Positions 4,821-46,888 of a DNA stretch of 64,000 bases are shown here, piece after piece. The first letter of the stretch is position 1, and the number at the start of each line of letters is the position of its first letter. The translations under genes were made by a program, and so were the position numbers. The notes beneath the pieces are model-generated. The model did not search any database. It worked only from the letters and a program-made list of their open reading frames with translations, and was not told the origin of the DNA. Source of the DNA: Escherichia coli (GTDB lineage: Bacteria; Pseudomonadota; Gammaproteobacteria; Enterobacterales; Enterobacteriaceae); the NCBI RefSeq assembly GCF_044324785.1, contig NZ_CP172127.1, one strand, 5' to 3'.

Positions 4821-5870
4821 ATGAAGGTTGATTCAATGGCCGATAACATCCCACAAGCTCCTCAAGGTGAGTTTGTTCTTTTCACCAGTGCTGATGGTCA
4901 AACCCGCGTTGAGTGTCGTTTTGAGTCTGACACCTTGTGGCTTTCTCAGGCTGCAATGGCAGAGCTTTATCAAGTTAGCTCTCAAGCAATCACCCAACAC
5001 GTAAAAGCTGTCTATTCTGAAGAAGAGCTTGAGCAAATTTCAACTTGTAAGGATTACTTACAAGTTCAACTGGAAGGTGGCAGAGAAGTAAAGCGAAGCA
5101 TTCGTCACTACAGTCTTCCGGTTATTCTTGCAGTAGGATACCGAGTTCGCTCAACACGTGGCACCCAGTTCCGCCAATGGGCAACCAGAATGTTGCAAGA
5201 ATACCTAATCAAAGGATTCGTCATGGATGACGAGCGCCTGAAAAATCCGCCCATTGGCCATTCTGCTGTGCCAGATTACTTTGATGAAATGCTGGAACGC
5301 ATTCGTGATATCCGAGCTAGTGAGCGTCGCGTTTATCTGCGAGTCAAAGAAATCTTTACCATGGCTGCTGATTACGAGCCATCTAACCAAGAGACCAACC
5401 GCTTCTTCCAAACCATTCAGAATAAGCTGCATTATGCTTGTACGCATATGACGGCTGCTGAGCTTATCGCCAGCCGTGTGGATGCCAGTAAGCCGGATAT
5501 GGGCTTAACCAGCTATAAAGGCGATGAAGTGCGCAAGACAGACGTTACTGTTGCCAAGAACTATTTGCGTGAAGACGAAATCAAAGAGCTTAATCGCATC
5601 GTCAATATGTGGCTCGACTTTGCTGAAGACCAAGCACTGCGTCGCAAGCAGGTATTTTTACAGGACTGGGCCGATAAGCTTGACCAGTTCTTGAGTTTTA
5701 ACGATAGAGATGTATTAAACGGTGCAGGAAAAATCTCCAAGAAAGACGCTGATGACAAAGCGAAATTGGAGTTTGACCGCTTTGCCCAGCAGCGCCGTCG
5801 TTTAAAAGAAGCCGAAGGCGCACGGGCCAATATCGCAGCCCTCAAGGCCATACTAAAAAAAGATAAATAG
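4821..5870 (+). CDS. RhuM-family protein (alternative start at ATG 4836)
   Basis: N-terminal segment LFTSADGQTRVECRFESDTLWLSQAAMAELYQVSSQAITQHVKAVY matches the RhuM family N-terminal region as I recall it; 20 bp downstream of the preceding gene, same strand. Confidence 0.55.
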   Translation: MKVDSMADNIPQAPQGEFVLFTSADGQTRVECRFESDTLWLSQAAMAELYQVSSQAITQHVKAVYSEEELEQISTCKDYLQVQLEGGREVKRSIRHYSLPVILAVGYRVRSTRGTQFRQWATRMLQEYLIKGFVMDDERLKNPPIGHSAVPDYFDEMLERIRDIRASERRVYLRVKEIFTMAADYEPSNQETNRFFQTIQNKLHYACTHMTAAELIASRVDASKPDMGLTSYKGDEVRKTDVTVAKNYLREDEIKELNRIVNMWLDFAEDQALRRKQVFLQDWADKLDQFLSFNDRDVLNGAGKISKKDADDKAKLEFDRFAQQRRRLKEAEGARANIAALKAILKKDK

Positions 5871-12918: not shown

Positions 12919-14451
12919 TCAGGTGCCGATTATGCCGCCGTCGGCTTTTACGATAACGACAGTTGAGGAGCGCGGACGACCAGCCTTATCGCCGTCAGGC
13001 CAGCTTGATACTGCCGTCGGATGCTGCGGATCGCTAAGCCCTTCGCTTGGCTCGCCAGGGTGCTGGATGTTAATAAACAGCGTCCGGTTATCCGGAGTGA
13101 ACGCGATGCCGGTGATTTCGCAGCCGCGCGGGCCGGTCAGGAAGCGGCGGAACTCATTGGTACCGGGGATCGTCGCCACCATCTGGTTGTTGCCCATGCC
13201 TTTGTAATCTTTAATATTTATGGTTGATGACGACACGTCGGTCTGGATCCATAGCACGCCGCGGTGATCAAAGCTCAGGCCATCGGCGCTGCCGAATTCC
13301 GCACCCTTCATGCTGCCTTTGGTTTCCAGTTTGTCTGTATCGGTGCGACCGCCCATCACAAGAATATCCCAGGCAAACTGCAGCGCGGTCGGGTCACCGT
13401 TATGCTCCAACCAGTGAATGATGTGGCCGTAAACGTTTTTGGCGCGCGGGTTGGCCGCATCCACTGGCGCTTTTCCTTCCTTACCGCGATCGCTGTTGTT
13501 GGTGAGCGTGCAGTAAACGCTGCCGGCGTGATATGGATCGACCGCAATCCACTCCGGGCGGTCCATTTTAGTGGCCCCCACGGCGTCTGCCGCCAGACGG
13601 GTTTTAATCAACAGGTCGCCCTGGTTTTCAAACCCTTTACTGGCGTCGAGCCCATTTTGTCCGAACACCAGCGGTAGCCACTCGCCTTTGCCGTCGTCGT
13701 TAAATTTCGCCACGTACAGAGTGCCTTTTTCCAGCAGGTGCATGTTGGCTTTGCGATCCTGCGGGTTGAATTTTCCTTCCGAGACAAATTTATATATGTA
13801 TTCGAATTTCTGGTCATCGCCCATATAGACCACAACGCGGTTATCCGGGGCAATTGTCACCGCTGCGCCTTCGTGTTTGATGCGACCAAGCGCGGTGTGC
13901 TTGCGCGGCACTGAATGCGGATCGTATGGATCGATTTCCACCACCCAGCCGAAGCGGTTCGGCTCGTTCGGCGTGGCGTCGACGCTGAACCTTTTATCCA
14001 CTTCGTTCCAGCGGTAAGAGTCGTCGCTCCCGCTGATACCGTAACGTTTTTCCAGCGGGTTCATCTCTGCTTTTTTTACGAAAATATCGGACCAGTTCTC
14101 TTCACACGTCAGATAGGTGCCCCACGGCGTAAATCCGTTGGCACAGTTCTGCATGGTGCCGAGAATGATTTCGCCTTTCGGATCGTCAACTGTTTGCATC
14201 AGTGGGTTATGCAGCGCCGGACCGGTGATTTTCATCGGCGTGTTAACGGTGATGCGGCGTGCGAACGATGACGGGCGCACCACTTCCCAGCCCAGGGGCA
14301 CTTTTTTTACTTCAATGACCGACACGCCCATCGCGTTCTGGCCTTTAAGAGCTTTATCGGCGCTCCAGTTGGCATCGCCATCTTTAAACAGTAGACCGTT
14401 ATCGATGTATTCATGGTTTATGGCAAGCAGGCCGTGATCGGAGCTGTTCCC
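12919..14451 (-). pseudogene. phoX: PhoX-family (DUF839-like) secreted phosphatase gene, 3' part, separated from its 5' part by the prophage
   Basis: Reading frame continues exactly from the fragment at 52793-53245 across the target-site duplication (...SLPQGGN | SSDHGLLAINHEY...); the first 16 codons of ORF 12919-14499 are phage-end derived. Confidence 0.65.
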
Positions 14452-14500
14452 TGATGCGCCGCGCGATAAATGCACTCTATCTTGTGCGATAAATGGCATC
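14452..14500. repeat. Prophage left terminus with two putative transposase-binding motifs
   Basis: GATAAATG at 14465-14472 and 14488-14495; mirrored at identical offsets at the right end. Confidence 0.6.
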
Positions 14501-14529: not shown

Positions 14530-15102
14530 TTACATTTCAGGTTGCGTTATGACAGTCCCAACAGGGTGGTAGCGGTAGATCGTTGACAGTCCAATATCAT
14601 AGATAATTGCCAGCCGCTTTCTGTCATACCCTTTCTGGAGCAATCTTGCGATCTGCTCATGCTGCTCCTTCGTCAGTTTCGGGCGACGTCCTCCAACTCT
14701 TCCTTGTGCTCGCGCAGCAGCCAGTCCTGCCAGCGTGCGCTCAACTATCAGTTCACGCTCCATTTCTGCCAGTGCACCCATCATATGAAAAAAGAACCTT
14801 CCCATCGGAGTGCTGGTATCGATTGAATCCGTCAGACTGCGAAAATTGACACCTTTTGCGCGTAGCTCTTCTGTGAGAGCAATGAGGTGTTTCATTCTTC
14901 TACCCAACCGATCCAGCTTCCAGACCACCAATGTATCCCCTCTTTTAAGGCACTTTAAAGCGCGTTTCAGGCCTGGTCGTTCCGACTTGGTTCCGCTCAT
15001 TTTGTCCTCAAAAATCTGTTCACATCCTGCGCACATTAATGCATTGCGTTGCAAATCTGTGTTTTGGTCATTTGTTGACACACGTATGTAGCCAATCAGC
15101 AT
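14530..15102 (-). CDS. pin: Site-specific DNA invertase, Hin/Gin/Pin serine recombinase family
   Basis: MLIGYIRVSTNDQNTDLQRNAL...GDTLVVWKLDRLGR...MGALAEMERELIVERT is the invertase catalytic domain plus C-terminal HTH; adjacent to tail-fibre cassettes. Confidence 0.9.
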   Translation of the reverse strand: MLIGYIRVSTNDQNTDLQRNALMCAGCEQIFEDKMSGTKSERPGLKRALKCLKRGDTLVVWKLDRLGRRMKHLIALTEELRAKGVNFRSLTDSIDTSTPMGRFFFHMMGALAEMERELIVERTLAGLAAARAQGRVGGRRPKLTKEQHEQIARLLQKGYDRKRLAIIYDIGLSTIYRYHPVGTVITQPEM

Positions 15103-15147
15103 TAAAAATACTCCCTTTTGAGTGGTTAAAGTACTGAGATAATGTGG

Positions 15148-15173
15148 GGAGGATTTGAGAGATAAACGTTGGT
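15148..15173. other. Putative invertase crossover site A (gix/pix-like), core AAACG-TT-GGTTT
   Basis: Core AAACGTTGGTTT at 15155-15166 at the start of the conserved ~200-bp fibre box; identical inverted core at 16779-16790. Confidence 0.45.
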
Positions 15174-15686
15174 TTAGGAGAAGGCTCGGCGCTACCCGTT
15201 GGTGTGCCTGTTCCGTGGCCCACCGCCACACCGCCAGCAGGCTGGTTAAAGTGCGACGGGCGCGCCTTTACAAAAGAACAATATCCTGTTCTGGCCAGAG
15301 TCTACCCGACCCTCCGTCTTCCCGATTTACGCGGTGAGTTTATCCGTGGATGGGACGACGGGCGCAAAGTTGATACAGGACGTAAGTTGCTGTCCGCACA
15401 AGGGGCAACGCTGTTAAGAACAGCAATGCTGGATTATTATAACCAGGACACTACGGGAACCTCGGGGATAGTCGGCATGGGATTCAACAATGAAGATTCC
15501 ATTACAGACCTTCGTGAGGGCAGCTTTAAAATGCCGGACGGGACAACATTCAGCGATCCTGTCGTGGCAATGTCAGACAATGGTATGCAGGCTACTATTC
15601 TGACCTCTATCAGAAGCGGGTATGCGAAGGGTATCACTGTCAGACCCCGTAGCATTGCACTTAATTACATTGTGAGGGCAGTTTAA
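15150..15686 (+). CDS. Tail-fibre C-terminal cassette 3 (start-less alternative variable domain)
   Basis: Frame opens after TGA at 15147-15149 with no ATG; encodes the conserved box GEGSALPVGVPVPWPTATPPAGWL...RGEFIRGWDDGRK then a unique C-terminus ending NYIVRAV. Confidence 0.7.
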
Positions 15687-16300
15687 TGAGTAACACTGCA
15701 GTTCTGGATGAAAACGGTATCGCCACTGTAGCGGGCGAGATCACTGTATATCACTATGACGAGGAAACCCGGGAATACACCTCATCCTCTGTGGAGTATC
15801 TCGCCCTTGGGGTGGGTACTCCGGCACATTCGTGCGCCGATGCACCGCCGGAGGCAATTTCGGGTTACGTGGTTTGCCGGACTGCCACGCTGAACGGGTG
15901 GGAGCATGTGCCTGATCACCGCGGCGAGACGGTATACAGCACGGAGAACGGTAACCCCGTTCTGATTACCCAACCGGGTGATTACCCGGCGGACACCACC
16001 ACAAAACAGCCGGCCACGCCATGGGATACCTGGAACGGTGAGGCGTGGGTAACCGATACTGAACGGCAGCGAGCCGCAGAACTGGAGGTTGCCAGACAGC
16101 AACGCCAGCAACGGGTGAAACAGGCGATGGCGTCCGTCGATCTTATCAACCTCAAACTGCGTGCTGGTCGCAGTCTGACACCAGAAGAAACGGCAAAACT
16201 GAACGCCGTGCTGGATTATATCGACGAGCTGAACGCACTGGATATCAGCACGGCACCTGAAATCAGCTGGCCGGAAGCGCCACTGGCACTTGCCAGCTGA
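15686..16300 (+). CDS. Tail fibre assembly protein (Tfa/U-like)
   Basis: ATG overlaps cassette-3 stop (TAATG); 204 aa, in the position and orientation of a Tfa chaperone for cassette 3. Confidence 0.65.
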   Translation: MSNTAVLDENGIATVAGEITVYHYDEETREYTSSSVEYLALGVGTPAHSCADAPPEAISGYVVCRTATLNGWEHVPDHRGETVYSTENGNPVLITQPGDYPADTTTKQPATPWDTWNGEAWVTDTERQRAAELEVARQQRQQRVKQAMASVDLINLKLRAGRSLTPEETAKLNAVLDYIDELNALDISTAPEISWPEAPLALAS

Positions 16301-16306
16301 ACGGTA

Positions 16307-16780
16307 TCACGCCGCCCTCACGATATAGTTAAACGCGATATTGCGGGGGCGGGTTATGTTAAAGAATGCTCCGTTTAATTCGGCTTTTGCGCGACTGTTT
16401 GTTCCACCCAGAATTGCGTACCACAAATAATCGCTACGGTAATTCCCCGCAAACACCTTATCGCCGCCATAGTCAATATTATTTCCGTTACTCATGTACG
16501 AGATATCCAGCGAAGAATCGTTATCGTCATGACCGCCGACCAGTGTACCTTTCTGCCATGAAAGCAACTTACGCCCCTCGTCAATCTTGCGCCCGTCGTC
16601 CCATCCACGGATAAACTCACCGCGTAAATCGGGAAGACGGAGGGTCGGGTAGACTCTGGCCAGAACAGGATATTGTTCTTTGGTGAACGTAGCTCCGTTG
16701 CACTGTAACCAGCCTGCTGGCGGTGTGGCGGTGGGCCACGGAACAGGCACACCAACAGGCAATGCAGAGCCTTCCCCCAA
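16307..16780 (-). CDS. Tail-fibre C-terminal cassette 2 (unfused alternative variable domain, TTG-initiated frame)
   Basis: Begins with the same conserved box as cassettes 1 and 3 but has a different distal sequence; lies directly after the main fibre stop in +1 frame. Confidence 0.55.
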   Translation of the reverse strand: MGEGSALPVGVPVPWPTATPPAGWLQCNGATFTKEQYPVLARVYPTLRLPDLRGEFIRGWDDGRKIDEGRKLLSWQKGTLVGGHDDNDSSLDISYMSNGNNIDYGGDKVFAGNYRSDYLWYAILGGTNSRAKAELNGAFFNITRPRNIAFNYIVRAA

Positions 16781-16798
16781 ACCAACGTTTTTATGCGG
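16773..16798. other. Putative invertase crossover site B (inverted relative to site A)
   Basis: + strand AAACCAACGTTT at 16779-16790 is the reverse complement of the site A core. Confidence 0.45.
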
Positions 16799-18719
16799 CC
16801 CTTACGATGTAATTAAACGCAACATTGCGGGGGCGCATTGATATCCATGCCCCGGTAAAATTATCCTCCGCTGTCCTTTGAATACCCGTTATAGAGTTAT
16901 CTGCTGATGCAGGAACATAATCGCTATTATTTCCTGCTTTAGGATTAGCTGGGTTTCCAACGGTTATAACAGAATCAGCAGTAGCAAAAGCGATACCTAC
17001 TTTGACATTAGTATTCAGATCGTAACCGTAATAATCCTGCAAAGCTGTACGAATAAATGTTGCAGCCTGACCACTTAGCAATGAACGCCCCGTATCAACT
17101 TTGCGCCCGTCGTCCCATCCACGGATAAACTCACCGCGCAAATCGGGAAGACGGAGGGTCGGGTAGACTCTGGCCAGAACAGGATATTGTTCTTTTGTAA
17201 AGGCGCGCCCGTCACACTTTAACCAGCCTGCTGGCGGTGTGGCGGTGGGCCATGGAACAGGCACACCAACAGGCAGTGCAGAGCCTTCCCCCAAACCAAG
17301 GTAATTGAGGACATCTTTTATACTGCCCTTAGCGATAATAGCGCGACCAATAGCTGTAAGGGTTGCCAGCGCTGCGCGGTCTGCTCCGGTAAAATAAGGC
17401 AACCGATCTGCTGCAGTGGCAAGTCCTGCCAGAGCAGTGAGCGTGGCATCTGCCGGTTGTTTTCCGTTTGCCAGATCGTATGCAGCCTTGACCGCTTTCG
17501 GTGTGGCGGCCAGTATTTCAGACGTGCTGTTGATGGCACTGCTCAATTGTATGGTGCCTTTTGCCGTCAGCGAGGCAGCAGGCACTCCCGTTATCTGACT
17601 CCACGGGTGAGTGTGGCTGACGGGCGCCTTGCCGGCTGCAAGGTCGTATGCAGCCTTGACCGCCTTCGGCGTGGCAGCCTCAGTTTCTGATTGACTGTCC
17701 GTGGCGCTGCTCAGTTGTACGGTGCCTTTTGCCGTCAGCGAGGCAGCAGGCACTCCCGTTATCTGACTCCACGGGTGAGTGTGGCTGACGGGGGCCTTGC
17801 CGGCAGCCAGGTCATATGCAGCCTTGACGGCCTTTGGTGTGGCGGCCAGCGTTTCAGAGGTGCTGTTGGTGGCACTGCTCAGTTGTACGATCCCTTTACG
17901 GGTCGTTGTTGCATCCTGGGCTGTGTATTTTCCCCGGGCCAGATCATACGCGATTTTCACAGCCTTCGGCGTGGCAGCCTCAGTTTCTGATTGACTGTCC
18001 GTGGCGCTGCTCAGTTGTACGGTGCCTTTTGCCGTCAGCGAGGCAGCAGGCACTCCCGTTATCTGACTCCACGGGTGAGTGTGGCTGACGGGGGCCTTGC
18101 CGGCAGCTAGGTCATATGCAGCCTTGACGGCCTTTGGTGTGGCGGCCAGCGTTTCAGAGGTGCTGTTGGTGGCACTGCTCAGTTGTACGATCCCTTTACG
18201 GGTCGTTGTTGCATCCTGGGCTGTGTATTTTCCCCGGGCCAGATCATACGCGATTTTCACAGCCTTCGGCGTGGCAGCCTCAGTTTCTGATTGACTGTCC
18301 GTGGCACTGCTCAGCTGTACGGTGCCTTTTGCCGTCAGCGAGGCAGCAGGCACTCCCGTTATCTGACTCCACGGGTGAGTGTGACTGACGGGTGCCTTGC
18401 CGGCTGCAAGGTCGTATGCAGCCTTGACGGCTTTTGGTGTGGCGGCCAGCGTTTCAGAGGTGCTGTTGGTGGCACTGCTCAGTTGGGTGAACCCCTTAGC
18501 TGTCAGTGTCGCGTCCGGGTGGTTACGGGAACGTACGTGTTCAGCCAGTGACTGTGCGGCTTCCTCCGTTTTTTTCTTCAGCCATTTCGTCCTGTTTGCC
18601 AGTTGCCGGGGGGCTCGATTTGATATCCCGTCAGCACCACCCAGAACCGGATCTGATGTCTCCAGTTGATAGATTTTTTCTTCCCACTTTTCTGTTTCAT
18701 TCAGGTTTCCCATAATCAA
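16791..18719 (-). CDS. Tail fibre protein (642 aa) with internal repeats and C-terminal cassette 1
   Basis: Repeated QLSSAT..SET.AATPKAVK.AYDLA.GK fibre repeat motif; C-terminal region carries the conserved box and ends NYIVRAA. Confidence 0.85.
   Translation of the reverse strand: MIMGNLNETEKWEEKIYQLETSDPVLGGADGISNRAPRQLANRTKWLKKKTEEAAQSLAEHVRSRNHPDATLTAKGFTQLSSATNSTSETLAATPKAVKAAYDLAAGKAPVSHTHPWSQITGVPAASLTAKGTVQLSSATDSQSETEAATPKAVKIAYDLARGKYTAQDATTTRKGIVQLSSATNSTSETLAATPKAVKAAYDLAAGKAPVSHTHPWSQITGVPAASLTAKGTVQLSSATDSQSETEAATPKAVKIAYDLARGKYTAQDATTTRKGIVQLSSATNSTSETLAATPKAVKAAYDLAAGKAPVSHTHPWSQITGVPAASLTAKGTVQLSSATDSQSETEAATPKAVKAAYDLAAGKAPVSHTHPWSQITGVPAASLTAKGTIQLSSAINSTSEILAATPKAVKAAYDLANGKQPADATLTALAGLATAADRLPYFTGADRAALATLTAIGRAIIAKGSIKDVLNYLGLGEGSALPVGVPVPWPTATPPAGWLKCDGRAFTKEQYPVLARVYPTLRLPDLRGEFIRGWDDGRKVDTGRSLLSGQAATFIRTALQDYYGYDLNTNVKVGIAFATADSVITVGNPANPKAGNNSDYVPASADNSITGIQRTAEDNFTGAWISMRPRNVAFNYIVRAA
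17286..17311. other. Putative crossover site C inside the main fibre gene (one half-site degenerate)
   Basis: Reverse complement reads TCAATTACC-TT-GGTTTGGGGGAA; right half conserved, left half diverged. Confidence 0.3.
17290..18510. repeat. Tandem ~300-bp coding repeats within the tail-fibre gene
   Basis: Shadow ORFs 17779-17994 and 18079-18294 are identical (300-bp period); 17834-18088 and 18134-18388 near-identical; protein shows about seven copies of a 45-55-aa motif. Confidence 0.75.
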
Positions 18720-20782: not shown

Positions 20783-21379
20783 TCAGTGGGAGTGGTGGCT
20801 GGAGTTTTCGCCATCAGACAACATACTGCCCGTGGCATGGGCATTCCCTTTAATCTCGATATTGCCATGGATGGTCGCGGTAACACCTTCACCACCAGAA
20901 CCCGCCATGCCTCCTTCGTAAATCAGCTTACCCCTGACACGCAGATCTCCGGTAAGTTCGGTTTCCGGTGCGTCAATCGTGGCTTTCTGTGTTTTCAATA
21001 CCACATCAGCACCACACTCAATGACAATATGCTCAATGCCGCCCCGGATGATCAGAGTGTGCGTCTTCCGGTTGTAGCTGTACTCTGCACCATCAGCAAA
21101 CCGGGTTCCCCGGATATTTTTGTCACTGAACGGTGGTTTATCGACGTCTGAATACACCGCGCCCAGAATAACACCATCCTCGCCGTTGGCATCGAGCAGC
21201 ACCTCAACCTGCTCCCCCACGTCAGGGAGCCAGTAATCTTTGTTATCCTGGGTATTGCGCTGCAGCACGTTAAGCCAGTTTGTGCGCAGGTTATCGCATT
21301 CAGGCAGACGAACGCGGGCCTGAACCCTGTCGGCATCAACGGCACTGACCGTACCGACCTGACGAGTGACACCAGTCAT
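20783..21379 (-). CDS. Baseplate spike/assembly protein V-like
   Basis: 198 aa, glycine-rich C-terminus with HxH motifs (SSHHSH) typical of spike tips. Confidence 0.75.
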   Translation of the reverse strand: MTGVTRQVGTVSAVDADRVQARVRLPECDNLRTNWLNVLQRNTQDNKDYWLPDVGEQVEVLLDANGEDGVILGAVYSDVDKPPFSDKNIRGTRFADGAEYSYNRKTHTLIIRGGIEHIVIECGADVVLKTQKATIDAPETELTGDLRVRGKLIYEGGMAGSGGEGVTATIHGNIEIKGNAHATGSMLSDGENSSHHSH

Positions 21380-22548
21380 TTTTTCTTCTCTCTTATTACT
21401 GTGGACGTGCTGCCGTCCGGTTTATAGATGGTCAGCATCCGGGTTTTGCCGATTTTTTTACCTTTCTTCGCCTTGCCCTGTGTGATCGGCCCCCGTGCCA
21501 CTTCCAGCTCTGTGGTGTAGCCGCTGTTACGGTCAAACGCATGGCGGGCAGTGGTTATGAGCCATGGCCCGGATAACTGCCCAAAACCCACCAGTTCAAT
21601 TTTGTTGCCTGCTGTCAGTTGAGGTGTTCCCGTCAGCGTCAGGGAGCCGTTCTGCTGGTATTCGTTATGTCTGGCCAGTGCTGAATCCGCTTTAATCCGG
21701 GCACTGTCCGGGTCGCTGACGCGGCTGTTAACTTTAAGTGAGTCAGCGCTGGTAACCTTACCACCTTTGAGCTTTTTGTCGCTTTCACGGGTACCACCAT
21801 CAGCTTCGTAGACGATCAGTTTTTTACTGCTGCTTTTCTGGTGTTTTACCTTTGCAGATTTATAGACCCGGTTGATGGTGTCACGCAGGGAAAAGCGGGC
21901 CACATCCTGCGGTTTTAACTGCCTGACCGGCTCCTGACTGCGCAGTGTGGCCAGATGAGAAAAAATCAGCTGGTCACTGACCACTTTCACTGCATAACCA
22001 TACTCGCTGGCCAGCCGGCGCAGAAAACCCACGTCGGTTTCAGCATACTGGGTCACCCGGTCGATTCTGATGGACTCAATGCTGCCCACCAGTTTCAGCC
22101 GGTGCTTTCTGGCAATCCGCCCCGCAACAGCTGCCAGCGTGGTGTTCTCAAAACCACGACTGGTTTTAGTCCGCAGGGCACTGTTAACCGAGGTGGCCAC
22201 CCCACGGATAGAAACAACGGAAGCGGGCGAACTCACTTCGATCTCGTCTATAGAGAACGTACCGCAGGACAGCAGCTTCTCGTCCTGATAGCCCATTTTC
22301 AGCGTCAGCGTGTCACCCTTGCCCGGATACCACTTATCCAGCCAGCGGCCATCGGTGTCGTCCAGCTCCACCTCAATGGTATCGGACTCATTTTTGATGT
22401 TATCGCTCCAGGTCACACGGGTGACATAAGGCGCGATATCAGAGGTGATGTTTTTCTGCAGATACCACAGAGTGAACACCGGTGTCAGCACATCGCTGAC
22501 GCCGGTTAACGCTGATGTGACTTGCGCAGTGCTGTTTATCTCAGCCAT
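21376..22548 (-). CDS. Baseplate hub protein (P2 gpD / Mu gp44-like)
   Basis: 390 aa, position after tail protein X. Confidence 0.7.
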   Translation of the reverse strand: MAEINSTAQVTSALTGVSDVLTPVFTLWYLQKNITSDIAPYVTRVTWSDNIKNESDTIEVELDDTDGRWLDKWYPGKGDTLTLKMGYQDEKLLSCGTFSIDEIEVSSPASVVSIRGVATSVNSALRTKTSRGFENTTLAAVAGRIARKHRLKLVGSIESIRIDRVTQYAETDVGFLRRLASEYGYAVKVVSDQLIFSHLATLRSQEPVRQLKPQDVARFSLRDTINRVYKSAKVKHQKSSSKKLIVYEADGGTRESDKKLKGGKVTSADSLKVNSRVSDPDSARIKADSALARHNEYQQNGSLTLTGTPQLTAGNKIELVGFGQLSGPWLITTARHAFDRNSGYTTELEVARGPITQGKAKKGKKIGKTRMLTIYKPDGSTSTVIREKKK

Positions 22549-22751
22549 GGGGCAATATCCTCTTCTGTACGGGCTTCTTCAGCCTCAATCACCGGGATCA
22601 GTAACAACAGCCCGGAGGGCAGCACCGGCGTGATGGCCACGTGCGGATTGGCGGCAATAATCCGGGGATAGCCCAGCGGGTCACCGTAGTACTGCCATGC
22701 CAGCGAATCCCAGCGCTCTCCGTCACGGGTAACATGTTCAAGAAACATCAC
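22536..22751 (-). CDS. Tail protein X-like (small LysM-like)
   Basis: 71 aa with WDSLAWQYYGDP...IAANPHV...GLLLLIP pattern. Confidence 0.7.
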   Translation of the reverse strand: MMFLEHVTRDGERWDSLAWQYYGDPLGYPRIIAANPHVAITPVLPSGLLLLIPVIEAEEARTEEDIAPWLR

Positions 22752-23632
22752 ACACTCCTCGTCAGTATTCTGGCGGCCATTGCACTTAATCCCGGAGACA
22801 TGCGGTTGAATGCTGTTCCGACGGCGTTAAGCTGCCCGGAAACGGTATCCAGAGCACCTGCAATATTTCTTTTGTCCACACCACTCAGCGCAGACTGTGC
22901 CTGCTGTACATACGTGGCTGCTTCGCTGGCTGTTCTGGCCAGACTGATGGCATCGGGCATGGATTCAGAGAGTGCGTTAAACGCCGGAACACTTTTCCCC
23001 AGAGCCCCGGAGATATTACCCAGTCCGCTCATCAGCCCCGGCACACGGGTCAGTGCGACAACGGGGTTATCCTTCATTTTCTGTGTCACCCGAACGGCGC
23101 TGATAGTGGTCTGGAGTACAGACTGCGCCTGTTTCGCATAGTTGACGCCGTTGCGGATGAACTGCGCCACCCCGGAAGGTGAAGGAATGGCACCGGAGAC
23201 CGCCCCGACACCCGGGAGCTTCGTGCGTATTGCCGGTGGTTGCAGAGGATTTTTCGGGTCACCGGTGTATTCCCGGAGAGACACGGTGGCACTGACAGCC
23301 AGCACGTTGCCGGTACTGTCAGTCTGCTCGCTGGTTGCAGTCACATCGGTAATCACGAACCAGCCGCGATAGTCACCGTTGCCGAAGACCAGCGCCAGTG
23401 CCTGATGGGCTTTCATGGCTGTTCGCAGTCTCGCCAGCTCCACATCGGGTACACAATAATGCTGATGGAAAACCAGAGTTATCTGGATTTCGTCCAGCCT
23501 GTCGCCGACGAACTGCAGGCCAGGCTTACCCCCGATGCGGGCATGCTCCGCATAATCGACGCCGAACGTGGCCTCGAAGCCGTCCCAGTAGGTAATCAGC
23601 TCAAACTCAATATCACCCAGTACGGCAAACAT
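22748..23632 (-). CDS. Tail protein (P2 gpU / Mu DNA-circularisation protein N-like)
   Basis: 294 aa between tape measure and X; assignment by position. Confidence 0.5.
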   Translation of the reverse strand: MFAVLGDIEFELITYWDGFEATFGVDYAEHARIGGKPGLQFVGDRLDEIQITLVFHQHYCVPDVELARLRTAMKAHQALALVFGNGDYRGWFVITDVTATSEQTDSTGNVLAVSATVSLREYTGDPKNPLQPPAIRTKLPGVGAVSGAIPSPSGVAQFIRNGVNYAKQAQSVLQTTISAVRVTQKMKDNPVVALTRVPGLMSGLGNISGALGKSVPAFNALSESMPDAISLARTASEAATYVQQAQSALSGVDKRNIAGALDTVSGQLNAVGTAFNRMSPGLSAMAARILTRSV

Positions 23633-26600
23633 CAGCGGTACTCCTTACGTTGTTTCTGAGCCAGCAGACGCTCCAGCATTTTTTCCAGCTCATGCAGACT
23701 CATATTCAGGGCACCAGTCAGTCCTGCAGGCGCTGTGGTTTCCCTGCCATTGAGGAAAAACTGAGGATTAAAGCTGACCTGGATACCACCAGACGTTCCA
23801 CCGCCGGTTGCAGCTGCACCACGGCCTGAATATCCGGCAGCCAGGATTTCAGGCGAGGGGATACGGGGAACATCCGGTGTCATCTCATTTGCCAGACGTT
23901 GCCCTGGTAAAATCGATGCCCGGGTGGAGAGCGGAATAACGGGCATGGAAGACAAACTATTGATTACGGCTCCGATCGCATTTTTAGCAGACGACATAAA
24001 CCCATTGATATCGGGCAACGGCATACTGAAGCGAACACCTGAAGTGTTATCCCGTATTTCTGGCCCCTGAATGCTCACGGGCATTCTGGGGAGCAGTTCA
24101 CTGGCCATTCGCTGCCCGGCCAGAGCTGCAAGCGGAGTGGTCCGCTGCAGGCCAATGGCGGCCCCCTGCGCGATATTGTCACCAAAGCCCATAAACACGC
24201 GGCTCGGCGAATGAATGCCCAGCTTTTCGCTGAACCAGCCACTGATGCTGTCACCCATTCCGGTTACACTGGATTTGAGCGACTCCCATTTGTTTTTGAT
24301 ACCGTTAATCAGACCGTCGACAAGATGGCCACCGAAGTCGGTGAACTTTGCCGGCAGATCAACACCAAGATATTTCAGCGCAGCTGCAAAGGCTTTATAG
24401 AGCAGACCTGCCGGCGACCAGTTAATCAGCAGCTTACCAGTTCCCGCGATACCGCCGTTAAAGGCTTCCTGAATGTCAGCCCAGCACTGTTTAAACCAGC
24501 TACTGATGCTGTCACCCATTCCGGTTACACTGGATTTGAGCGACCCCCATTTGTTTTTGATACCGTTAATCAGACCGTCGATAAGATGGCCACCGAAGTC
24601 GGTGAACTTTGCCGGCAGAGCAACGCCGAAATATTTCAGCGCAGCCGCAAAGGCTTTATAGAGCAGGCCTGCCGGCGACCAGTTAATCAGCAACTTACCA
24701 ATTCCCACAATGCCGCCGTTAAAGGCTTCCTGAATGTCAGCCCAGCGCTGTTTAAACCAGCTACTGATGCTGTCACCCATTCCGGTTACACTGGATTTGA
24801 GCGACCCCCATTTGCTTTTGATACCGTTAATCAGACCGTCGATAAGATGGCCACCGAAGTCGGTGAACTTTGCCGGCAGAGCAACGCCGAAATATTTCAG
24901 CGCAGCCGCAAAGGCTTTATAGAGCAGGCCTGCCGGCGACCAGTTAATCAGCAACTTACCAATTCCCACAATGCCGCCGTTAAAGGCTTCCTGAATGTCA
25001 GCCCAGCGCTGTTTAAACCAACCACTGACAGCCCCCCAGTTGCGGTAGATAAGGTAAGCTGCTGTCGCGACAGCGGTGATAACGAGACCGATGGGATTCA
25101 TCATCAGCGCTCGCCCAATCCAGAGAACGGCACGTGCAGCGCTCATAAAACCGCGAACGAGGCTGCCCGCCAGAACTTTGCTGAGTTTCAGTCCTCCGCT
25201 GGTCAGTCGGCTGAATCCAGTGACAAGCCAGCGTAATTTGCCACCTTCTCCGAGTGCGGTAGTCAGTCGATGCCAGTTGGTCCGGAGTAAAACAGTAGTT
25301 TTCCAGACGTTCACAAAGGGGGAAATAAGGAGATTCAGCCCCAGTTTGAGACCAATAGTCGCTATCTTAATCGCAAGGAGCGCACTGATGAGCTTAAAAG
25401 CCCCACTGACAAATTGCGGGTGAGTCGCTACCCAGTGTTTTGTCCCCTGAATGAGTGGGAGCAGTTCCTGAGTCAGAGAAATAAAAGATGGAGCTAATTG
25501 ATCGCCCAGCGTAATTGCCAGATCGCGACTGCTGACCATAAGTGTTTTAGTGGCTTCAAGGGGAGATTTCAGCCGCTGATCATAAGCACTGGCAAGCAAA
25601 TCGTTATCCGCAGCCCTGAGAGCACCGGCACGGATCTCTCGATATCTGTCCATGTTGGCCAGCATCGGGCGGATAAATGCCATGACCTGCATATCCGCGA
25701 ACATATCGCCCAGACCAAAGTTTTTCGCCAGAGCCTGAAGTGCCTCATCTCTTGCCGTATCATTCTTTATTTTCATGGCTGATTTGAAGCCGGCCAGCGC
25801 TTCGGGGCTTTTGGCATTGAGGTAACGTTCTATAACACTCAACATCCCTTCAATCGGAGAGATCCCCGCAGCTTTATAACTCGCAATAGATCCCTGCAAA
25901 TCAATACCCAGATCAGCAAACTGTTTCTGAGTATCGCGGGCAAAAATTTTGGTAAGAAAGTTTTTAAAATTATTGGCTGCTTCGTCGGTGGAACCTGCAC
26001 CGATTTTTGCTATCTGGAGACTGGCCCCGATTTCAGCAACAGCCTCTTTTCCACTGGCAAGACCCGCCATCATTGGGGCCAGGGACTGCATCCACTTGAC
26101 CTGATCCGGGATTTCAAATGACCCCTGGTCACCGGCATAAGCCATAATATTCTGAACGGCACCAAAATCTCTGGCCGCACCTTTCAGGGAGTTTTGCCAG
26201 ACTGCGGCCACTTTTGCCCAGTCCTGAGCAGACGTGCGTGTTGCCGTTGCCGCGCGGGCAATATCCGGCATCAGAAAACCGATATCTGACACATTATCAA
26301 TATTGTCGCTGATGAGTGAACCCACCGCCTCCTGCAGCTCATCCTGATACTGATTGTATTTAAGCGCCCAGCCTTTTATCTGTCCGGCAAGTGCATCCCG
26401 CGTTTTATTGTCATATTTTGCGGTGATCGACATATCAATCATTTTGTCCTGAAAAGACATGGACTGCTGAACGGCAGGGGAAACCGTATGATAAACAGTC
26501 TGTGCCATGCCATACGCTTCAATCCCCTGACCATACAGCGCCATGCGGTTAGCTTTCAGCGCATCACTGGTAGCGGATGCCGCTGACAGACGGCGCTGCT

Positions 26601-26844
26601 GGCGCTCAATTTGCTCCATGGTGCGGCTTACCCGCAGCAGCTCGCTGTTGAGATGCTGCATCCGGGAAGAACCCAGTTGACCATAACGTTCTGTTGCACG
26701 GGTTAAAGCGTTCTGACGTTCCTGCAGGCGGCGTGAGGTATCGCTCAGGGAATCAAGCGCACGGCGGGTACCGCTCATTGCAGAACGGAATGTGCTGCCA
26801 ATCATCCCGCCGATAACAACGCCGACTGAAAACTGTCCCGACAT
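23632..26844 (-). CDS. Tail tape measure protein (1070 aa) with internal triplicated 87-aa repeat
   Basis: Long, Ala/Gly-rich, coiled-coil-like N-terminus; sits after the tail chaperones. Confidence 0.85.
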   Translation of the reverse strand: MSGQFSVGVVIGGMIGSTFRSAMSGTRRALDSLSDTSRRLQERQNALTRATERYGQLGSSRMQHLNSELLRVSRTMEQIERQQRRLSAASATSDALKANRMALYGQGIEAYGMAQTVYHTVSPAVQQSMSFQDKMIDMSITAKYDNKTRDALAGQIKGWALKYNQYQDELQEAVGSLISDNIDNVSDIGFLMPDIARAATATRTSAQDWAKVAAVWQNSLKGAARDFGAVQNIMAYAGDQGSFEIPDQVKWMQSLAPMMAGLASGKEAVAEIGASLQIAKIGAGSTDEAANNFKNFLTKIFARDTQKQFADLGIDLQGSIASYKAAGISPIEGMLSVIERYLNAKSPEALAGFKSAMKIKNDTARDEALQALAKNFGLGDMFADMQVMAFIRPMLANMDRYREIRAGALRAADNDLLASAYDQRLKSPLEATKTLMVSSRDLAITLGDQLAPSFISLTQELLPLIQGTKHWVATHPQFVSGAFKLISALLAIKIATIGLKLGLNLLISPFVNVWKTTVLLRTNWHRLTTALGEGGKLRWLVTGFSRLTSGGLKLSKVLAGSLVRGFMSAARAVLWIGRALMMNPIGLVITAVATAAYLIYRNWGAVSGWFKQRWADIQEAFNGGIVGIGKLLINWSPAGLLYKAFAAALKYFGVALPAKFTDFGGHLIDGLINGIKSKWGSLKSSVTGMGDSISSWFKQRWADIQEAFNGGIVGIGKLLINWSPAGLLYKAFAAALKYFGVALPAKFTDFGGHLIDGLINGIKNKWGSLKSSVTGMGDSISSWFKQCWADIQEAFNGGIAGTGKLLINWSPAGLLYKAFAAALKYLGVDLPAKFTDFGGHLVDGLINGIKNKWESLKSSVTGMGDSISGWFSEKLGIHSPSRVFMGFGDNIAQGAAIGLQRTTPLAALAGQRMASELLPRMPVSIQGPEIRDNTSGVRFSMPLPDINGFMSSAKNAIGAVINSLSSMPVIPLSTRASILPGQRLANEMTPDVPRIPSPEILAAGYSGRGAAATGGGTSGGIQVSFNPQFFLNGRETTAPAGLTGALNMSLHELEKMLERLLAQKQRKEYR
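24200..25020. repeat. Three tandem ~261-bp coding repeats inside the tape-measure gene
   Basis: Shadow ORFs at 24215, 24473 and 24734 are near-identical; protein repeats ISSWFKQRWADIQEAFNGGIVGIGKLLINWSPAGLLYKAFAAALKYFGVALPAKFTDFGGHLIDGLINGIK.KW.SLKSSVTGMGDS three times. Confidence 0.8.
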
Positions 26845-26919: not shown

Positions 26920-27177
26920 CTATGATTTGTCGCCGTACTCGCTTTTGATTTGCTCTTCAGCCTGCTCCAGCCACATCTCCAGATCGTCAGTATCGAGGGC
27001 ATCAATCTCCCCCGGCTGAAACCGGAACCATCTCGCCAGCAGCCCCTGCGCCTGCGTCAGCGCCCTGGTTGCTCTCACCCATCCCCGTGATGAGCTGAAA
27101 TCGTTTCTGTAACTGCAGGTAATCAGCCAGATCCATATTGTCGAGATCTTCCGGGAGAAGACCAGTACTGCGGGCAA
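26920..27177 (-). other. Overlapping +1-frame extension of the tail chaperone (putative programmed-frameshift product)
   Basis: Second frame overlaps the last ~58 codons of the chaperone and continues 27 codons past its stop (...GEIDALDTDDLEMWLEQAEEQIKSEYGDKS). Confidence 0.4.
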
Positions 27178-27337
27178 TCAGCGGTTCGTCCCAGTCTGCC
27201 GGGTTTTTGCTGATTTTGCGCACCTGCTTCAGGTCTTTTACCGTCAGGCGTTTCAGTTCAACCAGCTCAATTCTGGTGCCTGCAGCAGTGGTGAAGGGAT
27301 AAGACAATTTAAAAGTATCGGATGGGGTCTGTGACAT
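27002..27337 (-). CDS. Tail assembly chaperone (upstream frame)
   Basis: 111 aa immediately upstream of tape measure. Confidence 0.6.
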   Translation of the reverse strand: MSQTPSDTFKLSYPFTTAAGTRIELVELKRLTVKDLKQVRKISKNPADWDEPLIARSTGLLPEDLDNMDLADYLQLQKRFQLITGMGESNQGADAGAGAAGEMVPVSAGGD

Positions 27338-27718: not shown

Positions 27719-28240
27719 TCAGCCCCCGATATTGATACGGTAGTCAGTCAGTTGATCAACACCGCCGACCCGGAAGATGTTGGCCAGATAGTCCAGTTGC
27801 AGCAGCTCTTCACCATCCAGTACCTGTCTGATATACGTGCAGGTGAAGCTACTGGAGAACTCGGCGTTCTCGTGCTGTTTGAACGTCCCCAGCGGGTTCT
27901 TCTTGAACATAATCGTCAGGAAGGTGACCAGCGGGATTTCGTCAATCAGCCCCTGCGAGCTGTAGCGCTGGACGCTGGAACGACACTGCAGTGCCAGCGA
28001 CCTGTACGGGTTCGCGGCAGACAGCATCGCATCGCGGTAAAAGCTGTTCCATTTGATTTCGCCTTCCAGCTTGTCAAAACCAGCCGGGAGTTCCACCTTA
28101 CCCACCATCCCCAGCGCCTTGTGTTCCTGCATAATCATGGAGACATCGGGGAGTTTGACTTCCTCAGCCCGTCCCAGCAGGTTAGTACCATCCAGATAGA
28201 TGTTGGCATTCGTGATGCGGTTTATCTCAATCTTTGACAT
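27719..28240 (-). CDS. Tail tube protein
   Basis: 173 aa directly downstream of sheath. Confidence 0.8.
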   Translation of the reverse strand: MSKIEINRITNANIYLDGTNLLGRAEEVKLPDVSMIMQEHKALGMVGKVELPAGFDKLEGEIKWNSFYRDAMLSAANPYRSLALQCRSSVQRYSSQGLIDEIPLVTFLTIMFKKNPLGTFKQHENAEFSSSFTCTYIRQVLDGEELLQLDYLANIFRVGGVDQLTDYRINIGG

Positions 28241-29667
28241 CAGTTGCCCCCTTTCAGGGTTAACAGGTATTCCGAGGTGATCTCAGTCTCAAACGTCAGT
28301 CGCTCCAGCGGCGGTGGTGGCGTATATTTGTAGCTCAGCAACAGGTGCCCGGCGGCCAGCTCCGTCTCCGGATTGCGGGCCGGATCAAACCAGCAACGGA
28401 AGCCCAGTACCGCACCATCACCAGTCATTTTGCGACCGTAGGCGTTGACCGACTCCGTCAGTGCATCAATCAGCGCCTGAGTAATCGGCATGTCGATGTA
28501 CTGCTGGCTGAAATAACGAATGGACTCGTTGATCACATCACCGGTGCGGCGAACGTTCTCAAAGTTACGCATATGGGTGACCGTTGGCCATGCTGCCGTC
28601 CGGTTACCCCACAGACGAAGGCCGCTGCCGTAACTGCTGAATACCGTGGTGATCCCCTGTTCGTTAAGCAGGTTCACCTCACTCTGCGGGTCATCAATCA
28701 TCGCGGACAGCTGGCGCTCCACGCCGGTGATCCCCAGAATCTCCTGATTGGAGGATGACCACCAGTAGCCCTTGTCCAGATCGACTCTGGCACGCAGACC
28801 TGCTGCACGCTGGCTGAGCGGCTCCAGACGCTCTGTGTTTGTCACCGGGTCATATACCTTCACATGCGGATAGCACAGACGGACGCGGTCGGAGCTGGTA
28901 TTGAAGTTGATGGTGCCTTCCGGGCCACGACCTGCCAGAGCCTGTGCAAAGGTGGTACCGACAGGCGCATCAATGTAGGTTACCGCGCCCAGCTTCTCTG
29001 CCATGGCGATAAGCTCAACTGCGACACTCTTCTGGGTGCAGAACACCGGCGCAATCAGAATTTTGGCGAAATAGCCGTACAGGTTGAAGCTGTCGTTAAG
29101 CAGCTTCATGCCGGTTCGGTTTCCGGCGCTGTTCACCCCGCCGATGATGTCCGCCGCAGTCACCTTCGACGGGTCCGCGTACTCATAGCTCACCTTCACG
29201 CTGCCACCGGCCTCAATAGCCTTGCCCAGGTTCGTGAGCACACCCGCCTGCGCATCAACACGGTAGTCCGTGTTCGCCGTGTGGGTGGTGCTGCCTTCAC
29301 TGTTTTTCACCACCACATTAGCGACAACCGGATGCGCCAGTCTGGCCTGCCCTGTCGATTTGTCAAAGGTAACCACCTCATCCTCGATCGCCGTTTTATG
29401 TTTCGCCGGGTCGAGGACGTTAATGACCAGAACGGTGCCTGCACCATGGTCATAAATCGCATCCAGCGCCTGCGGAATGGTAAAGCCGGTGAACTGGCTG
29501 CCAAATGCCGCTGCGTCTTTCTCAGACAGGCACTGTACCAGCGTATTGACATCCCCCATCGGGGCGGTACCAATCAGGCCAATAACGGCAGATTTCACCG
29601 TTTTAACCGGGCGGGCACCGTTTTCCACCTCAATGGTTTCGGGACCATGCAGATAGTTAGCTGCCAT
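28240..29667 (-). CDS. Contractile tail sheath protein
   Basis: 475 aa, first tail gene after head-completion genes. Confidence 0.85.
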   Translation of the reverse strand: MAANYLHGPETIEVENGARPVKTVKSAVIGLIGTAPMGDVNTLVQCLSEKDAAAFGSQFTGFTIPQALDAIYDHGAGTVLVINVLDPAKHKTAIEDEVVTFDKSTGQARLAHPVVANVVVKNSEGSTTHTANTDYRVDAQAGVLTNLGKAIEAGGSVKVSYEYADPSKVTAADIIGGVNSAGNRTGMKLLNDSFNLYGYFAKILIAPVFCTQKSVAVELIAMAEKLGAVTYIDAPVGTTFAQALAGRGPEGTINFNTSSDRVRLCYPHVKVYDPVTNTERLEPLSQRAAGLRARVDLDKGYWWSSSNQEILGITGVERQLSAMIDDPQSEVNLLNEQGITTVFSSYGSGLRLWGNRTAAWPTVTHMRNFENVRRTGDVINESIRYFSQQYIDMPITQALIDALTESVNAYGRKMTGDGAVLGFRCWFDPARNPETELAAGHLLLSYKYTPPPPLERLTFETEITSEYLLTLKGGN

Positions 29668-45108: not shown

Positions 45109-46878
45109 ATGAATGCTGCCCTGACTGAACGACTGGTTTATGTCGCCCGCGCGGCACGTGACGCGGGGCATGGTAAACGCGGCGCAGTATACGACGCTGC
45201 CTGTGCTGAACTTGGCATGTCCCGCGCCACTCTGCTGCGCAGGCTGAAGGAGGTATCTGTGACTGATAAACGCAAAAAACGCGCCGATGCCGGGCGCAGC
45301 GCCCTGACCCGCGACGAAGCCGCGCTGATATCTGCCACACTGCGTGAGGCCACCCGCAAGAACGGTAAGCGTCTCTATTCCATCGCGGATGCAGTGGAAA
45401 CCCTGCGGGCTAACGGCTTTATATCCGCAGGCAGAACAGATGAAACCACCGGTGAGTTTTTCCCGTTGTCCGAAGATGCCATCAGCCGAGCCCTGCGTAA
45501 CTATGGCCTGCACCCGGAACAACTGGATGCCCCTGCGCCGCATACCGAAGTGGCCAGTCTGCATCCCAATCATGTCTGGCAGATTGACGCCTCACTCTGC
45601 ACGCTTTACTACCTGAGCAATGGACATAAAGGGCTGCAGGTGATGGACAGCGCGAAGTTCTACAAGAACAAGCCCGCTAACCTTGCCCGTATCGCCAGTG
45701 ACCGCGTGTGGAGTTACGAGATTACCGACCATGCCAGCGGCTGGATTTACGTTGAGTATGTGACGGGCGCGGAATCAGGTGAGAACCTGTGTTCTGTGCT
45801 TATCAACGCCATGCAGGAGCGTGGCGGCGCAGACGTGCTGCACGGTGTGCCGAAAATACTCTATCTCGACCCCGGCTCGGCAAACACCGCGGGTATGACG
45901 AAAAACATGTGCCGCTCACTGGGCATCGACCTGATAGCGCACAAGCCGCATAACGCCCGCGCCACCGGACAGGTGGAAAAGGCGCGGGACATTATCGAAC
46001 GCAAGCTGGAGCCGGGTCTGAAGTTCCGGCCGGTTCACAGTCTGGAAGAACTCAACGCGCTGGCCGCGAAATGGCGCAGCCACTTTAACGCCACGGCTGT
46101 TCACAGCCGCCACGGTAAAACCCGCACGGATATCTGGCTGAAGATTACTGCTGAGCAGCTGAAAAAAGCGCCTTCCGTTGAGGTATGTCGTGAACTGGCT
46201 GTGGCGGCACCAGAACTCCGCAAAGTCACGCCAAAACTTCGTGTCTCGTTCCGGGGCACTGAATTTGACGTATCAACGGTACCGGGCGTACTGGTTGGTG
46301 AAAAACTGATGATTACCCGTAACCCGTGGCGCAGCGATGTGGCACAGGTGGTTCTGACCGGTGAGGACGGCCACGAGACGTTCTTCCTGGTCGAAGAGGT
46401 CAGAAAGAACGAGTTTGGCTTTGCTGAAGGCGCGGCGGTATTTGGCGAAAGTTACAAAGCCCTGCCGGAAACCCCGGCGCAGATGGCGGCAAAAGAAACC
46501 GAAGCGCTGGTCACCGGTACAGACAACGCCGCAGATGCAGCTGCCGCACGCAAGGCGAAGGCGCTGCCGTTCGGCGGGCGGCTTGACCCGTATAAACATA
46601 TCGACGACACCACACTTCCGGCCTATATGCCGAAGCGTGGTCAGGCCTCTGACGTACGCGGGCCGCGCACTGAACAACGTCCCATGACTTATGTGGAGGC
46701 CGCGAAAGCCCTGCGCGATAAGTTCAGCGCCAACGGCTTTACCTGGACGCTGGAACATTACCGCCAGTTAACGGCACAGTATCCGGACGGCGTACCGGAA
46801 GCCGCACTGGATGAAGTCATGGCCACGCTGACCACGCCGGCCCGCAGCAGCGTTATCAGTATTGTTAACGGCAACTGA
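45109..46878 (+). CDS. Mu-type DDE transposase (A protein)
   Basis: 589 aa with integrase-core region (HVWQIDASL...) followed by the B-like ATPase gene. Confidence 0.8.
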   Translation: MNAALTERLVYVARAARDAGHGKRGAVYDAACAELGMSRATLLRRLKEVSVTDKRKKRADAGRSALTRDEAALISATLREATRKNGKRLYSIADAVETLRANGFISAGRTDETTGEFFPLSEDAISRALRNYGLHPEQLDAPAPHTEVASLHPNHVWQIDASLCTLYYLSNGHKGLQVMDSAKFYKNKPANLARIASDRVWSYEITDHASGWIYVEYVTGAESGENLCSVLINAMQERGGADVLHGVPKILYLDPGSANTAGMTKNMCRSLGIDLIAHKPHNARATGQVEKARDIIERKLEPGLKFRPVHSLEELNALAAKWRSHFNATAVHSRHGKTRTDIWLKITAEQLKKAPSVEVCRELAVAAPELRKVTPKLRVSFRGTEFDVSTVPGVLVGEKLMITRNPWRSDVAQVVLTGEDGHETFFLVEEVRKNEFGFAEGAAVFGESYKALPETPAQMAAKETEALVTGTDNAADAAAARKAKALPFGGRLDPYKHIDDTTLPAYMPKRGQASDVRGPRTEQRPMTYVEAAKALRDKFSANGFTWTLEHYRQLTAQYPDGVPEAALDEVMATLTTPARSSVISIVNGN

Positions 46879-46888
46879 GGAGGGAAAC

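Follow-up and report, generated by a model that had tools for sequence, protein, structure and literature searches.

The tape-measure gene of a prophage in Escherichia coli (RefSeq assembly GCF_044324785.1, contig NZ_CP172127.1) contains three consecutive and nearly identical units of 87 amino acids (aa), which raises the question of how such an array arose, whether it is still changing, and what it does to the phage tail. The stretch of 64,000 nucleotides (nt) that was analysed is referred to here as the window, and the gene is a 1070-codon open reading frame (ORF) on its minus strand. The length of the tape-measure protein sets the length of the tail, and in-frame duplications in tape-measure genes are known. 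The reading favoured here, with a probability of about 0.78, is that a conserved, helical module of 87 aa, located in the C-terminal half of a tape measure resembling P2 gpT, forms a tandem repeat that is young and active in recombination, that whole units have been gained and lost recurrently, and that the additional units would give a longer tail.

Tandem Repeats Finder (TRF) reported a single array at 24233-25028, with a period of 261 bp, 3.0 copies, 96% matches, 0 indels and a score of 1466. A second repeat search found three copies at a spacing of exactly 261 + 261 bp with identities of 100, 95 and 93%. The first-pass annotation of this DNA had described three near-identical consecutive 87-aa units at 24200-25020; both searches bore this out, and its coordinates were off by about 30 bp at most. 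The array lies in frame within the ORF and consists of head-to-tail 261-bp units over 24233-25015, named u1, u2 and u3 in the direction of the gene (Table 1). TRF overran the three full units by 13 nt because the 14 nt preceding u1 (GTCAGTGGTTGGTT) resemble the unit ends. Units u1 and u2 differed by 1 nt and 1 aa (S/N), u2 and u3 by 15 nt and 8 aa, and u1 and u3 by 16 nt, and the three-unit array is far above chance expectation. A fourth, degenerate copy next to the array was sought by Smith-Waterman comparison against shuffled units, which gave z = 0.1 upstream and 0.9 downstream, and a diverged copy upstream of u1 that had been suspected by eye was rejected on the former value. Opposite the array, a 341-aa antisense ORF (24211-25236, plus strand) was found by coordinate arithmetic to occupy the codon-aligned antisense frame, in which stops arise only from the sense codons TTA, CTA and TCA. 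As a gene candidate it had only marginal, repeat-inflated Pfam matches and is most likely an artefact.

By every feature testable here, the gene is assigned to the tape-measure proteins of the TP901 or P2-gpT type. Besides the Pfam core domain PF10145, it matched phrog_28 of PHROGs ('tail length tape measure protein', E 2e-135), is named 'phage tail tape measure protein' by RefSeq in identical genomes, and is the longest ORF of its gene cluster. The Pfam matches and the RefSeq annotation together gave a tail operon in the order sheath, tube, gpE-type chaperone, tape-measure gene, gpU, gpX and gpD. The tape-measure assignment made at first pass was thus upheld by domain, PHROGs and synteny alike.

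To see how copy number varies, the tape-measure gene was searched in 5426 complete E. coli genomes, of which 635 matched and 585 covered at least 80% of the gene. Allele lengths were read from 60 of the 635 matching genomes, sampled at even spacing. Genes of 3213, 2952 and 2691 bp, corresponding to three, two and one units, were found 14, 38 and 2 times, together with one truncated 2952-bp form, four distant genes of 2466 bp and one fragment. The two-unit form is typical of strains of sequence type 131 (ST131), such as EC958. The corresponding protein lengths of 1070, 983 and 896 aa recurred in a collection of 5.8 billion proteins, and neither the 120 best protein matches nor the sampled genomes included a four-unit allele (1157 aa). 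The first-pass annotation had proposed comparing tape-measure length and repeat number in related prophages, and had taken mutually diverged triple units in relatives as the mark of an ancient repeat. In that comparison, three-, two- and one-unit alleles were 96-100% identical, so that whole-unit copy number differed among otherwise near-identical prophages, and no set of three mutually diverged units was found among close relatives. The reading frame was kept in all variants (261 = 3 x 87), and all 9 alleles that were examined for internal stops had none. The polymorphism in unit number was observed between strains only. More distant relatives at 85-90% DNA identity (E. coli 503025, AVS0747 and a record named Klebsiella phage KP12) carried one unit, and the outgroup loci L007, L008 and L009 had one unit each. 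Comparison of the junctions in the window and in loci L007, L008, L003 and L004 showed that the single outgroup unit is flanked by a short direct repeat, TCAGTrrCTGGTT (..SxWF).

The history of gain and loss was then read from tables of the variable sites, which separated two unit types, alpha (u1 and u2 of the window) and beta (u3). The alpha/beta divergence of 15-16 of 261 nt (about 6%) was common to all two- and three-unit alleles, and the split between the types, on these comparisons, predates the diversification of those alleles. Several units were chimeric. The middle unit of the three-unit allele of AVS0973 was beta through site 54 and alpha from site 62, and that of PYO5 switched from beta (site 8) to alpha (site 43 onward). 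Among single units, that of TUM1857 was alpha through site 88 and beta from site 109, and that of AVS0947 joined the 5' part of EC958 unit 1 to the 3' part of EC958 unit 2, with flanks identical to those of EC958. This polarity is the one that unequal exchange predicts, namely beta-5'/alpha-3' in expansions and alpha-5'/beta-3' in contractions. Two units preceded three, because a beta-5'/alpha-3' chimera requires an alpha-beta parent. Because the middle unit of the window is pure alpha, the exchange must have taken place no further than 7 nt into the unit, or else within the 13 nt of homology at its boundary; slippage between the short repeats on either side could also have produced the copy. 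Since three distinct middle-unit structures exist, three units must have been reached on three occasions or more, and the present sample suggests that three-unit alleles were repeatedly derived from two-unit forms. Judged from the chimeric units, the one-unit state re-arose at least twice by contraction through unequal recombination, and the one-unit alleles of the closest relatives are, on the same comparison, secondary deletions and not ancestors. From its whole-unit variation, chimera polarity and preserved frame, the locus behaves as an intragenic tandem repeat resembling a variable-number tandem repeat.

The sequence flanking the array in the gene fell into two haplogroups differing at 70-78 of 1829 positions, mostly in gene nt 1400-1829, and one-, two- and three-unit alleles were present in each. 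About 64 of these differences lie within about 430 nt upstream of the array (25016-25445 in the window), the remainder of the gene being nearly identical, and this hotspot of divergence suggests that the hydrophobic segment was exchanged in mosaic fashion. The closest comparison was provided by the two-unit allele of strain S7, which differed from the window at 0 of 2430 flanking gene positions (1829 nt before the array and 601 after) and whose units are exactly u2 and u3 of the window. The window gene therefore equals the S7 allele plus one alpha unit carrying a single A-to-G change, and the copy-number event separating the two appears very recent, whichever its direction. The first-pass annotation had proposed one recent duplication. 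Recency holds for the third unit, which is very young given the identity with S7; the alpha/beta split is older, at about 6%, so that the array formed in two steps. The first-pass interpretation is supported on the whole, with the further refinement that expansion and contraction recurred and that the closest one-unit relatives are deletions.

These comparisons show a sequence of events. The ancestral gene had one module, flanked by the 12-14-nt direct repeat (..SxWF). A first duplication gave rise to the alpha and beta units, with the short flanking repeat as its likely substrate; this repeat is a plausible substrate because the same pair brackets the single unit in outgroup prophages. Once adjacent 261-bp homologous units were present, whole units were gained or lost repeatedly through unequal homologous exchange or slippage, in frame every time. 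At the level of the particle, the tape-measure protein would lie extended in the tail tube and end the polymerisation of tube and sheath, so that a longer protein would give a longer tail and the numbers of tube and sheath subunits would track tape-measure length.

The expected size of this effect was estimated from published rulers. A constant of 0.145-0.15 nm of tail per tape-measure residue has been reported (PMC5099701; for lambda, PMC3271669), and engineered duplications and deletions alter tail length proportionally in lambda and TP901-1 (PMC5099701, PMC3271669). In TP901-1, the tail became about 30% longer or shorter when 29% of the tape measure was duplicated or deleted, and in T4, too, tail length is set by the tape measure (PMC5099701 and work cited therein). 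At this rate, each unit should add about 13 nm of tail (87 x 0.145-0.15 nm), and the nominal ruler lengths would be about 134, 147 and 160 nm for proteins of 896, 983 and 1070 aa. As each ring of a contractile tail rises by about 4 nm, about three extra tube and sheath rings should result from each unit. The tail of the window prophage is predicted to be about 13 nm longer than that of the two-unit ST131 form and about 26 nm longer than those of one-unit forms. The figure of about 13 nm per unit follows from the tape measure being extended in the tube and from the module being predicted as almost entirely helical. The latter was obtained with AlphaFold2 from a 44-sequence alignment, for the module of the one-unit allele with its flanks only (about aa 562-608 together with one unit and a flank). 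The model had a mean predicted local distance difference test score (pLDDT) of 83 and was helical throughout (about 90%), with short breaks at GG, NW-SP and GV.LP. No paper with tail measurements of PhiKM, the closest named phage, was found; the literature matches concerned phiKMV-type names.

Several observations weigh against this reading. The predicted template modelling score (pTM) of the model was 0.45, which makes its helix packing unreliable, and the helices could fold back instead of extending, cutting the length added per unit. The array immediately follows membrane-like hydrophobic segments, and this region of the tape measure has been implicated in channel formation after ejection. 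Gain in the window and loss in S7 are indistinguishable from sequence alone, and ST131 is so strongly over-represented in the genome collection that the allele counts do not estimate population frequencies. According to Mahony et al., tail length is not determined by repeat regions alone (PMC5099701). The alternative that draws most on such points is that copy number alters the protein but not the tail, the module being compact or folded back at the distal end, or acting only after ejection, for example as a periplasm-spanning or membrane conduit, with extra units changing DNA delivery and not length. The position of the module directly after two membrane-like stretches, the helix breaks at Gly/Pro positions in a model of low pTM, the DNA-transit roles of tape measures noted along with the repeat result of Mahony et al. 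(PMC5099701), and the channel role proposed for the tape measure of phage NF5 would all be in keeping with it. We nevertheless consider it unlikely: in every system tested (lambda, TP901-1 and T4), tail length follows the length of the tape measure (PMC5099701, PMC3271669), helix makes up about 90% of the module in the model, complete tape-measure proteins, including their hydrophobic parts, sit inside the tube before ejection, and a length role and a DNA-delivery role are not mutually exclusive. A bolder extension of the length effect, which we hold to be improbable, is that the array is a built-in device for length variation, by which one widespread Mu-like lineage of E. coli keeps producing heritable tail-length variants that are selected in their hosts. 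If so, selection, for instance by the thickness of capsule or O-antigen, would decide which variant prevails in each host lineage, and the 300-bp in-frame array in a tail-fibre gene of the same prophage (described below) would be a parallel device.

Recurrent gain and loss of units was also weighed against an old triplication in which u1 and u2 had been homogenised by gene conversion (concerted evolution), with the two- and one-unit alleles as later deletions. A conversion-like tract does occur, since sites 43-62 of EC958 unit 1, an alpha unit elsewhere, carry beta bases; the alleles of AVS0947 and TUM1857 are clearly deletion products; and the direction of the change between the window and S7 is not resolvable. 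Outgroup prophages at 85-90% identity, however, have a single unit, the beta-5'/alpha-3' middle units of AVS0973 and PYO5 derive only from a two-unit alpha-beta parent, the three middle-unit structures favour separate expansions over one old triplication, and two-unit alleles predominate in both flank haplogroups, which together make this account very improbable. That the third unit is a near-identical repeat expanded by assembly can be practically dismissed, because, although short-read assemblies are broken by the array (the phage PhiKM record has a gap of 100 N within it), the identical 3213-bp gene recurs in over 30 E. coli genomes that were finished independently and that differ in laboratory and host, and u1 has a private substitution.

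To place the module in a wider context, the 87-aa unit was searched exhaustively with HMMER against 1.84 billion representative proteins, yielding 604 clusters with E <= 0.001, of which 323 had E <= 1e-10. In the consensus of the best 150 homologues, a hydrophobic segment NPIGL..AAYLIY, kept across all of these, precedes the module (..AFxGGIxGIxxLIxNWSPLGLFYxAFAxVLxxFGxxLPxKFTxFG..), which is followed by GWFKxxLGIHSPSRVF. Complete modules were counted in the 92 full-length proteins of this best-150 set, including that of the window: 69 had one, 20 had two, 2 had three and 1 had four, in a list that is enriched in multi-copy proteins because those score higher. The periods ranged from 52 to 116 aa across the multi-copy proteins, which indicates independent duplications. 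Judged by this distribution, the module is old and widespread, lying beneath a young repeat in the window. No Pfam model matched the unit, even at E up to 10. The sole match in a sequence search of the PDB was a weak one (E 0.0037) to the tape measure of Brochothrix phage NF5 (9m8o chain M), in which only residues 648-674 are modelled, and Foldseek with the AlphaFold2 module model found nothing in the PDB at E <= 0.001.

Among deposited phage genomes, the module was present in 116 records with one matching place each, mainly in P2-like and BcepMu-like myophages of Burkholderia and Ralstonia (phiE255, KS14, phiE202, RSA1 gpT). The gpT-type tape measures of phages of Burkholderia, Ralstonia and Pseudomonas (phiE255, KS14, phiE202, phiE52237, RSA1 gpT and RSY1) share the module (41-54% identity, E 1e-9 to 1e-14), which occupies the same position and precedes LGIHSPSRVF, and they have the same order of tail genes; they differ in having one copy each where the window has three. 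Metagenomic and prophage tape measures with two to four copies (for example P0122 with four and P0123 with three) also arose by tandem duplication of the same module, which shows such duplication to be recurrent in the family. Their adjacent copies are only 33-73% identical, compared with 92-99% for those of the window, pointing to old duplications, and their unit boundaries differ. The ruler of TP901-1 (Pedersen 2000; Mahony 2016, PMC5099701) resembles the window gene in its PF10145 core and its position downstream of the chaperone gene. TP901-1 is, however, a siphophage of a Gram-positive host with 11- and 18-residue aromatic-spaced repeats and engineered length changes, whereas the window has an 87-aa module, a contractile-tail prophage and natural length alleles. 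Tape measures with 11-aa W/F repeats (Belcaid, Bergeron & Poisson 2011, PMC3271669) likewise have in-frame tandem units whose number varies between related prophages, and their history of duplication and loss is readable from paralogous versus orthologous differences. Compared with these, the unit in the window is eight times longer, and its copies are 91-99% identical in protein and not old and diverged. W/F autocorrelation of the one-unit protein version gave z = 0.3 at lag 11 for the whole protein and -0.1 for aa 440-720, and z = 1.0 and 0.8, respectively, at lag 18; with no W/F periodicity seen, membership in the 11-aa or 18-residue aromatic-spaced type was rejected. Lambda gpH and T4 gp29 (Katsura & Hendrix 1984; PMC5099701) share the ruler function at about 0.15 nm per residue, and T4 gp29 shows that the principle is valid for contractile tails, but neither has a detectable sequence relation to the module and the results came from laboratory mutants.

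A literature search on natural copy-number polymorphism in tape-measure genes returned nothing specific, and the present polymorphism was not found described. Events of this kind are already known; what is new is that a natural allelic series is resolved in fine detail and that there is evidence of units being gained and lost repeatedly. A series of one, two and three copies of a single 87-aa module in near-identical prophages, spread over hundreds of sequenced E. coli including ST131, offers material for testing the ruler rule quantitatively in a P2-type contractile tail. It could show how ruler length rounds to whole tube and sheath rings, and whether tail length affects the infection of hosts with different surface layers.

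The array also has practical consequences, as it breaks short-read assemblies and intact genes are miscalled as pseudogenes by automatic annotation. The tape-measure genes of AVS0973 (locus L005, 501-3713) and MS1657 (locus L006, 501-3452) were each called as two partial pseudogenes by RefSeq/PGAP. Both ORFs are intact and have no internal stop, so the pseudogene status was rejected as an annotation artefact, and variable unit number seems to mislead alignment-based pseudogene calling. In the PhiKM record (L001), the 100-N gap at 4915-5014 lies exactly inside the array and both of its sides map within units, so that the copy number cannot be read; the tape-measure gene is annotated there as two coding sequences. 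Two further length variants were each seen once. Protein P0001 (1084 aa) is a two-unit variant with an out-of-register duplication of 101 aa (EGGKLRW...GTGKLL) covering the start of unit 1 as well as the hydrophobic region, and P0106 (915 aa) is a two-unit variant with a 68-aa deletion between GLGD and TLGD. They may be genuine rare alleles, or else errors of assembly.

Table 1 Features of the tape-measure gene, the repeat array and the surrounding prophage genes in the window
Feature	Coordinates	Strand	Remarks
Repeat unit 1 (u1), alpha type	24755-25015	-	aa 609-695; sole change relative to u2 at site 201 (G, Ser not Asn)
Repeat unit 2 (u2), alpha type	24494-24754	-	aa 696-782; identical to unit 1 of the two-unit allele of strain S7
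Repeat unit 3 (u3), beta type	24233-24493	-	aa 783-869; identical to unit 2 of the S7 allele
Short direct repeat GTCAGTGGTTGGTT (encodes ..SGWF)	25016..25029	-	immediately upstream of u1; resembles the last 14 nt of each unit (ATCAGTrGCTGGTT)
Tape-measure protein gene, 1070 aa, intact ORF	23632..26844	-	PF10145, phrog_28, RefSeq annotation in identical genomes
TP901-type tape-measure core domain PF10145	25825..26370	-	aa 159-340; 74.6 bits, cut-off 33.2
Hydrophobic, membrane-like stretches (two)	25045..25419	-	about aa 476-522 and 571-600, Kyte-Doolittle scan; directly upstream of the array
Conserved WF..LGIHSPSRVF motif after the last unit	24193..24237	-	translation and consensus of 150 homologues; also in distant homologues
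gpE-type tail assembly chaperone gene	27002..27337	-	upstream of the tape-measure gene; PF10109, E 5.5e-21
Tail tube gene	27719-28240	-	PF04985, E 2.9e-53
Tail sheath gene	28240-29667	-	PF04984 and PF17482
gpU gene	22748-23632	-	PF06995, E 7.4e-39; downstream of the tape-measure gene
gpX and gpD genes	block 21376..23632 with gpU; gpD 21376-22548	-	PF05954; RefSeq annotation
DDE transposase	45109-46878		transposable-prophage gene
AAA+ MuB-like ATPase	46862-48055		transposable-prophage gene

Within the tail operon, an overlapping 'GpE family' frame is annotated in relatives at the chaperone gene. From its gene content, the prophage is of the BcepMu-like transposable type with a P2-type contractile tail. 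In strain 2016C-3878, the annotation of an identical prophage lists a DDE transposase, head genes of the Mu type, and a tail and baseplate of the P2 type, and PhiKM (PQ738613) is classified under Bcepmuvirus. The left end of the prophage, at about 14500 in the window, adjoins a PhoX-family phosphatase gene (12919-14499), and the same prophage (99.7% identical) adjoins barA in strain 2016C-3878. These different flanking genes indicate that the element occupies different chromosomal sites in different strains.

Further repeats were found in the tail-fibre region of the prophage. A second long in-frame array at 17662-18485 (and 17469-17897), with a period of 300 bp, 2.7 copies, 98% matches and no indels, sits in a 642-aa tail-fibre gene (16791..18719, minus strand) that has 7 matches to PF03406 ('Phage tail fibre repeat'). 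An older, overlapping periodicity of 168 bp is present there too. Young whole-module repeats thus occur in two tail-structure genes 6 kb apart. In addition, an invertible tail-fibre segment (15164-17299) was recognised from inverted repeats at 15164-15439, 16560-16790 and 17029-17299, which are 231-271 nt long and 88-89% complementary, with a serine invertase ORF (14530..15231, minus strand; Resolvase and HTH_7) beside them. Relative to the same prophage of strain 2016C-3878, window positions 15166-16790 are in the opposite orientation, which provides, as in the G segment of Mu, alternative fibre C-termini and assembly proteins.

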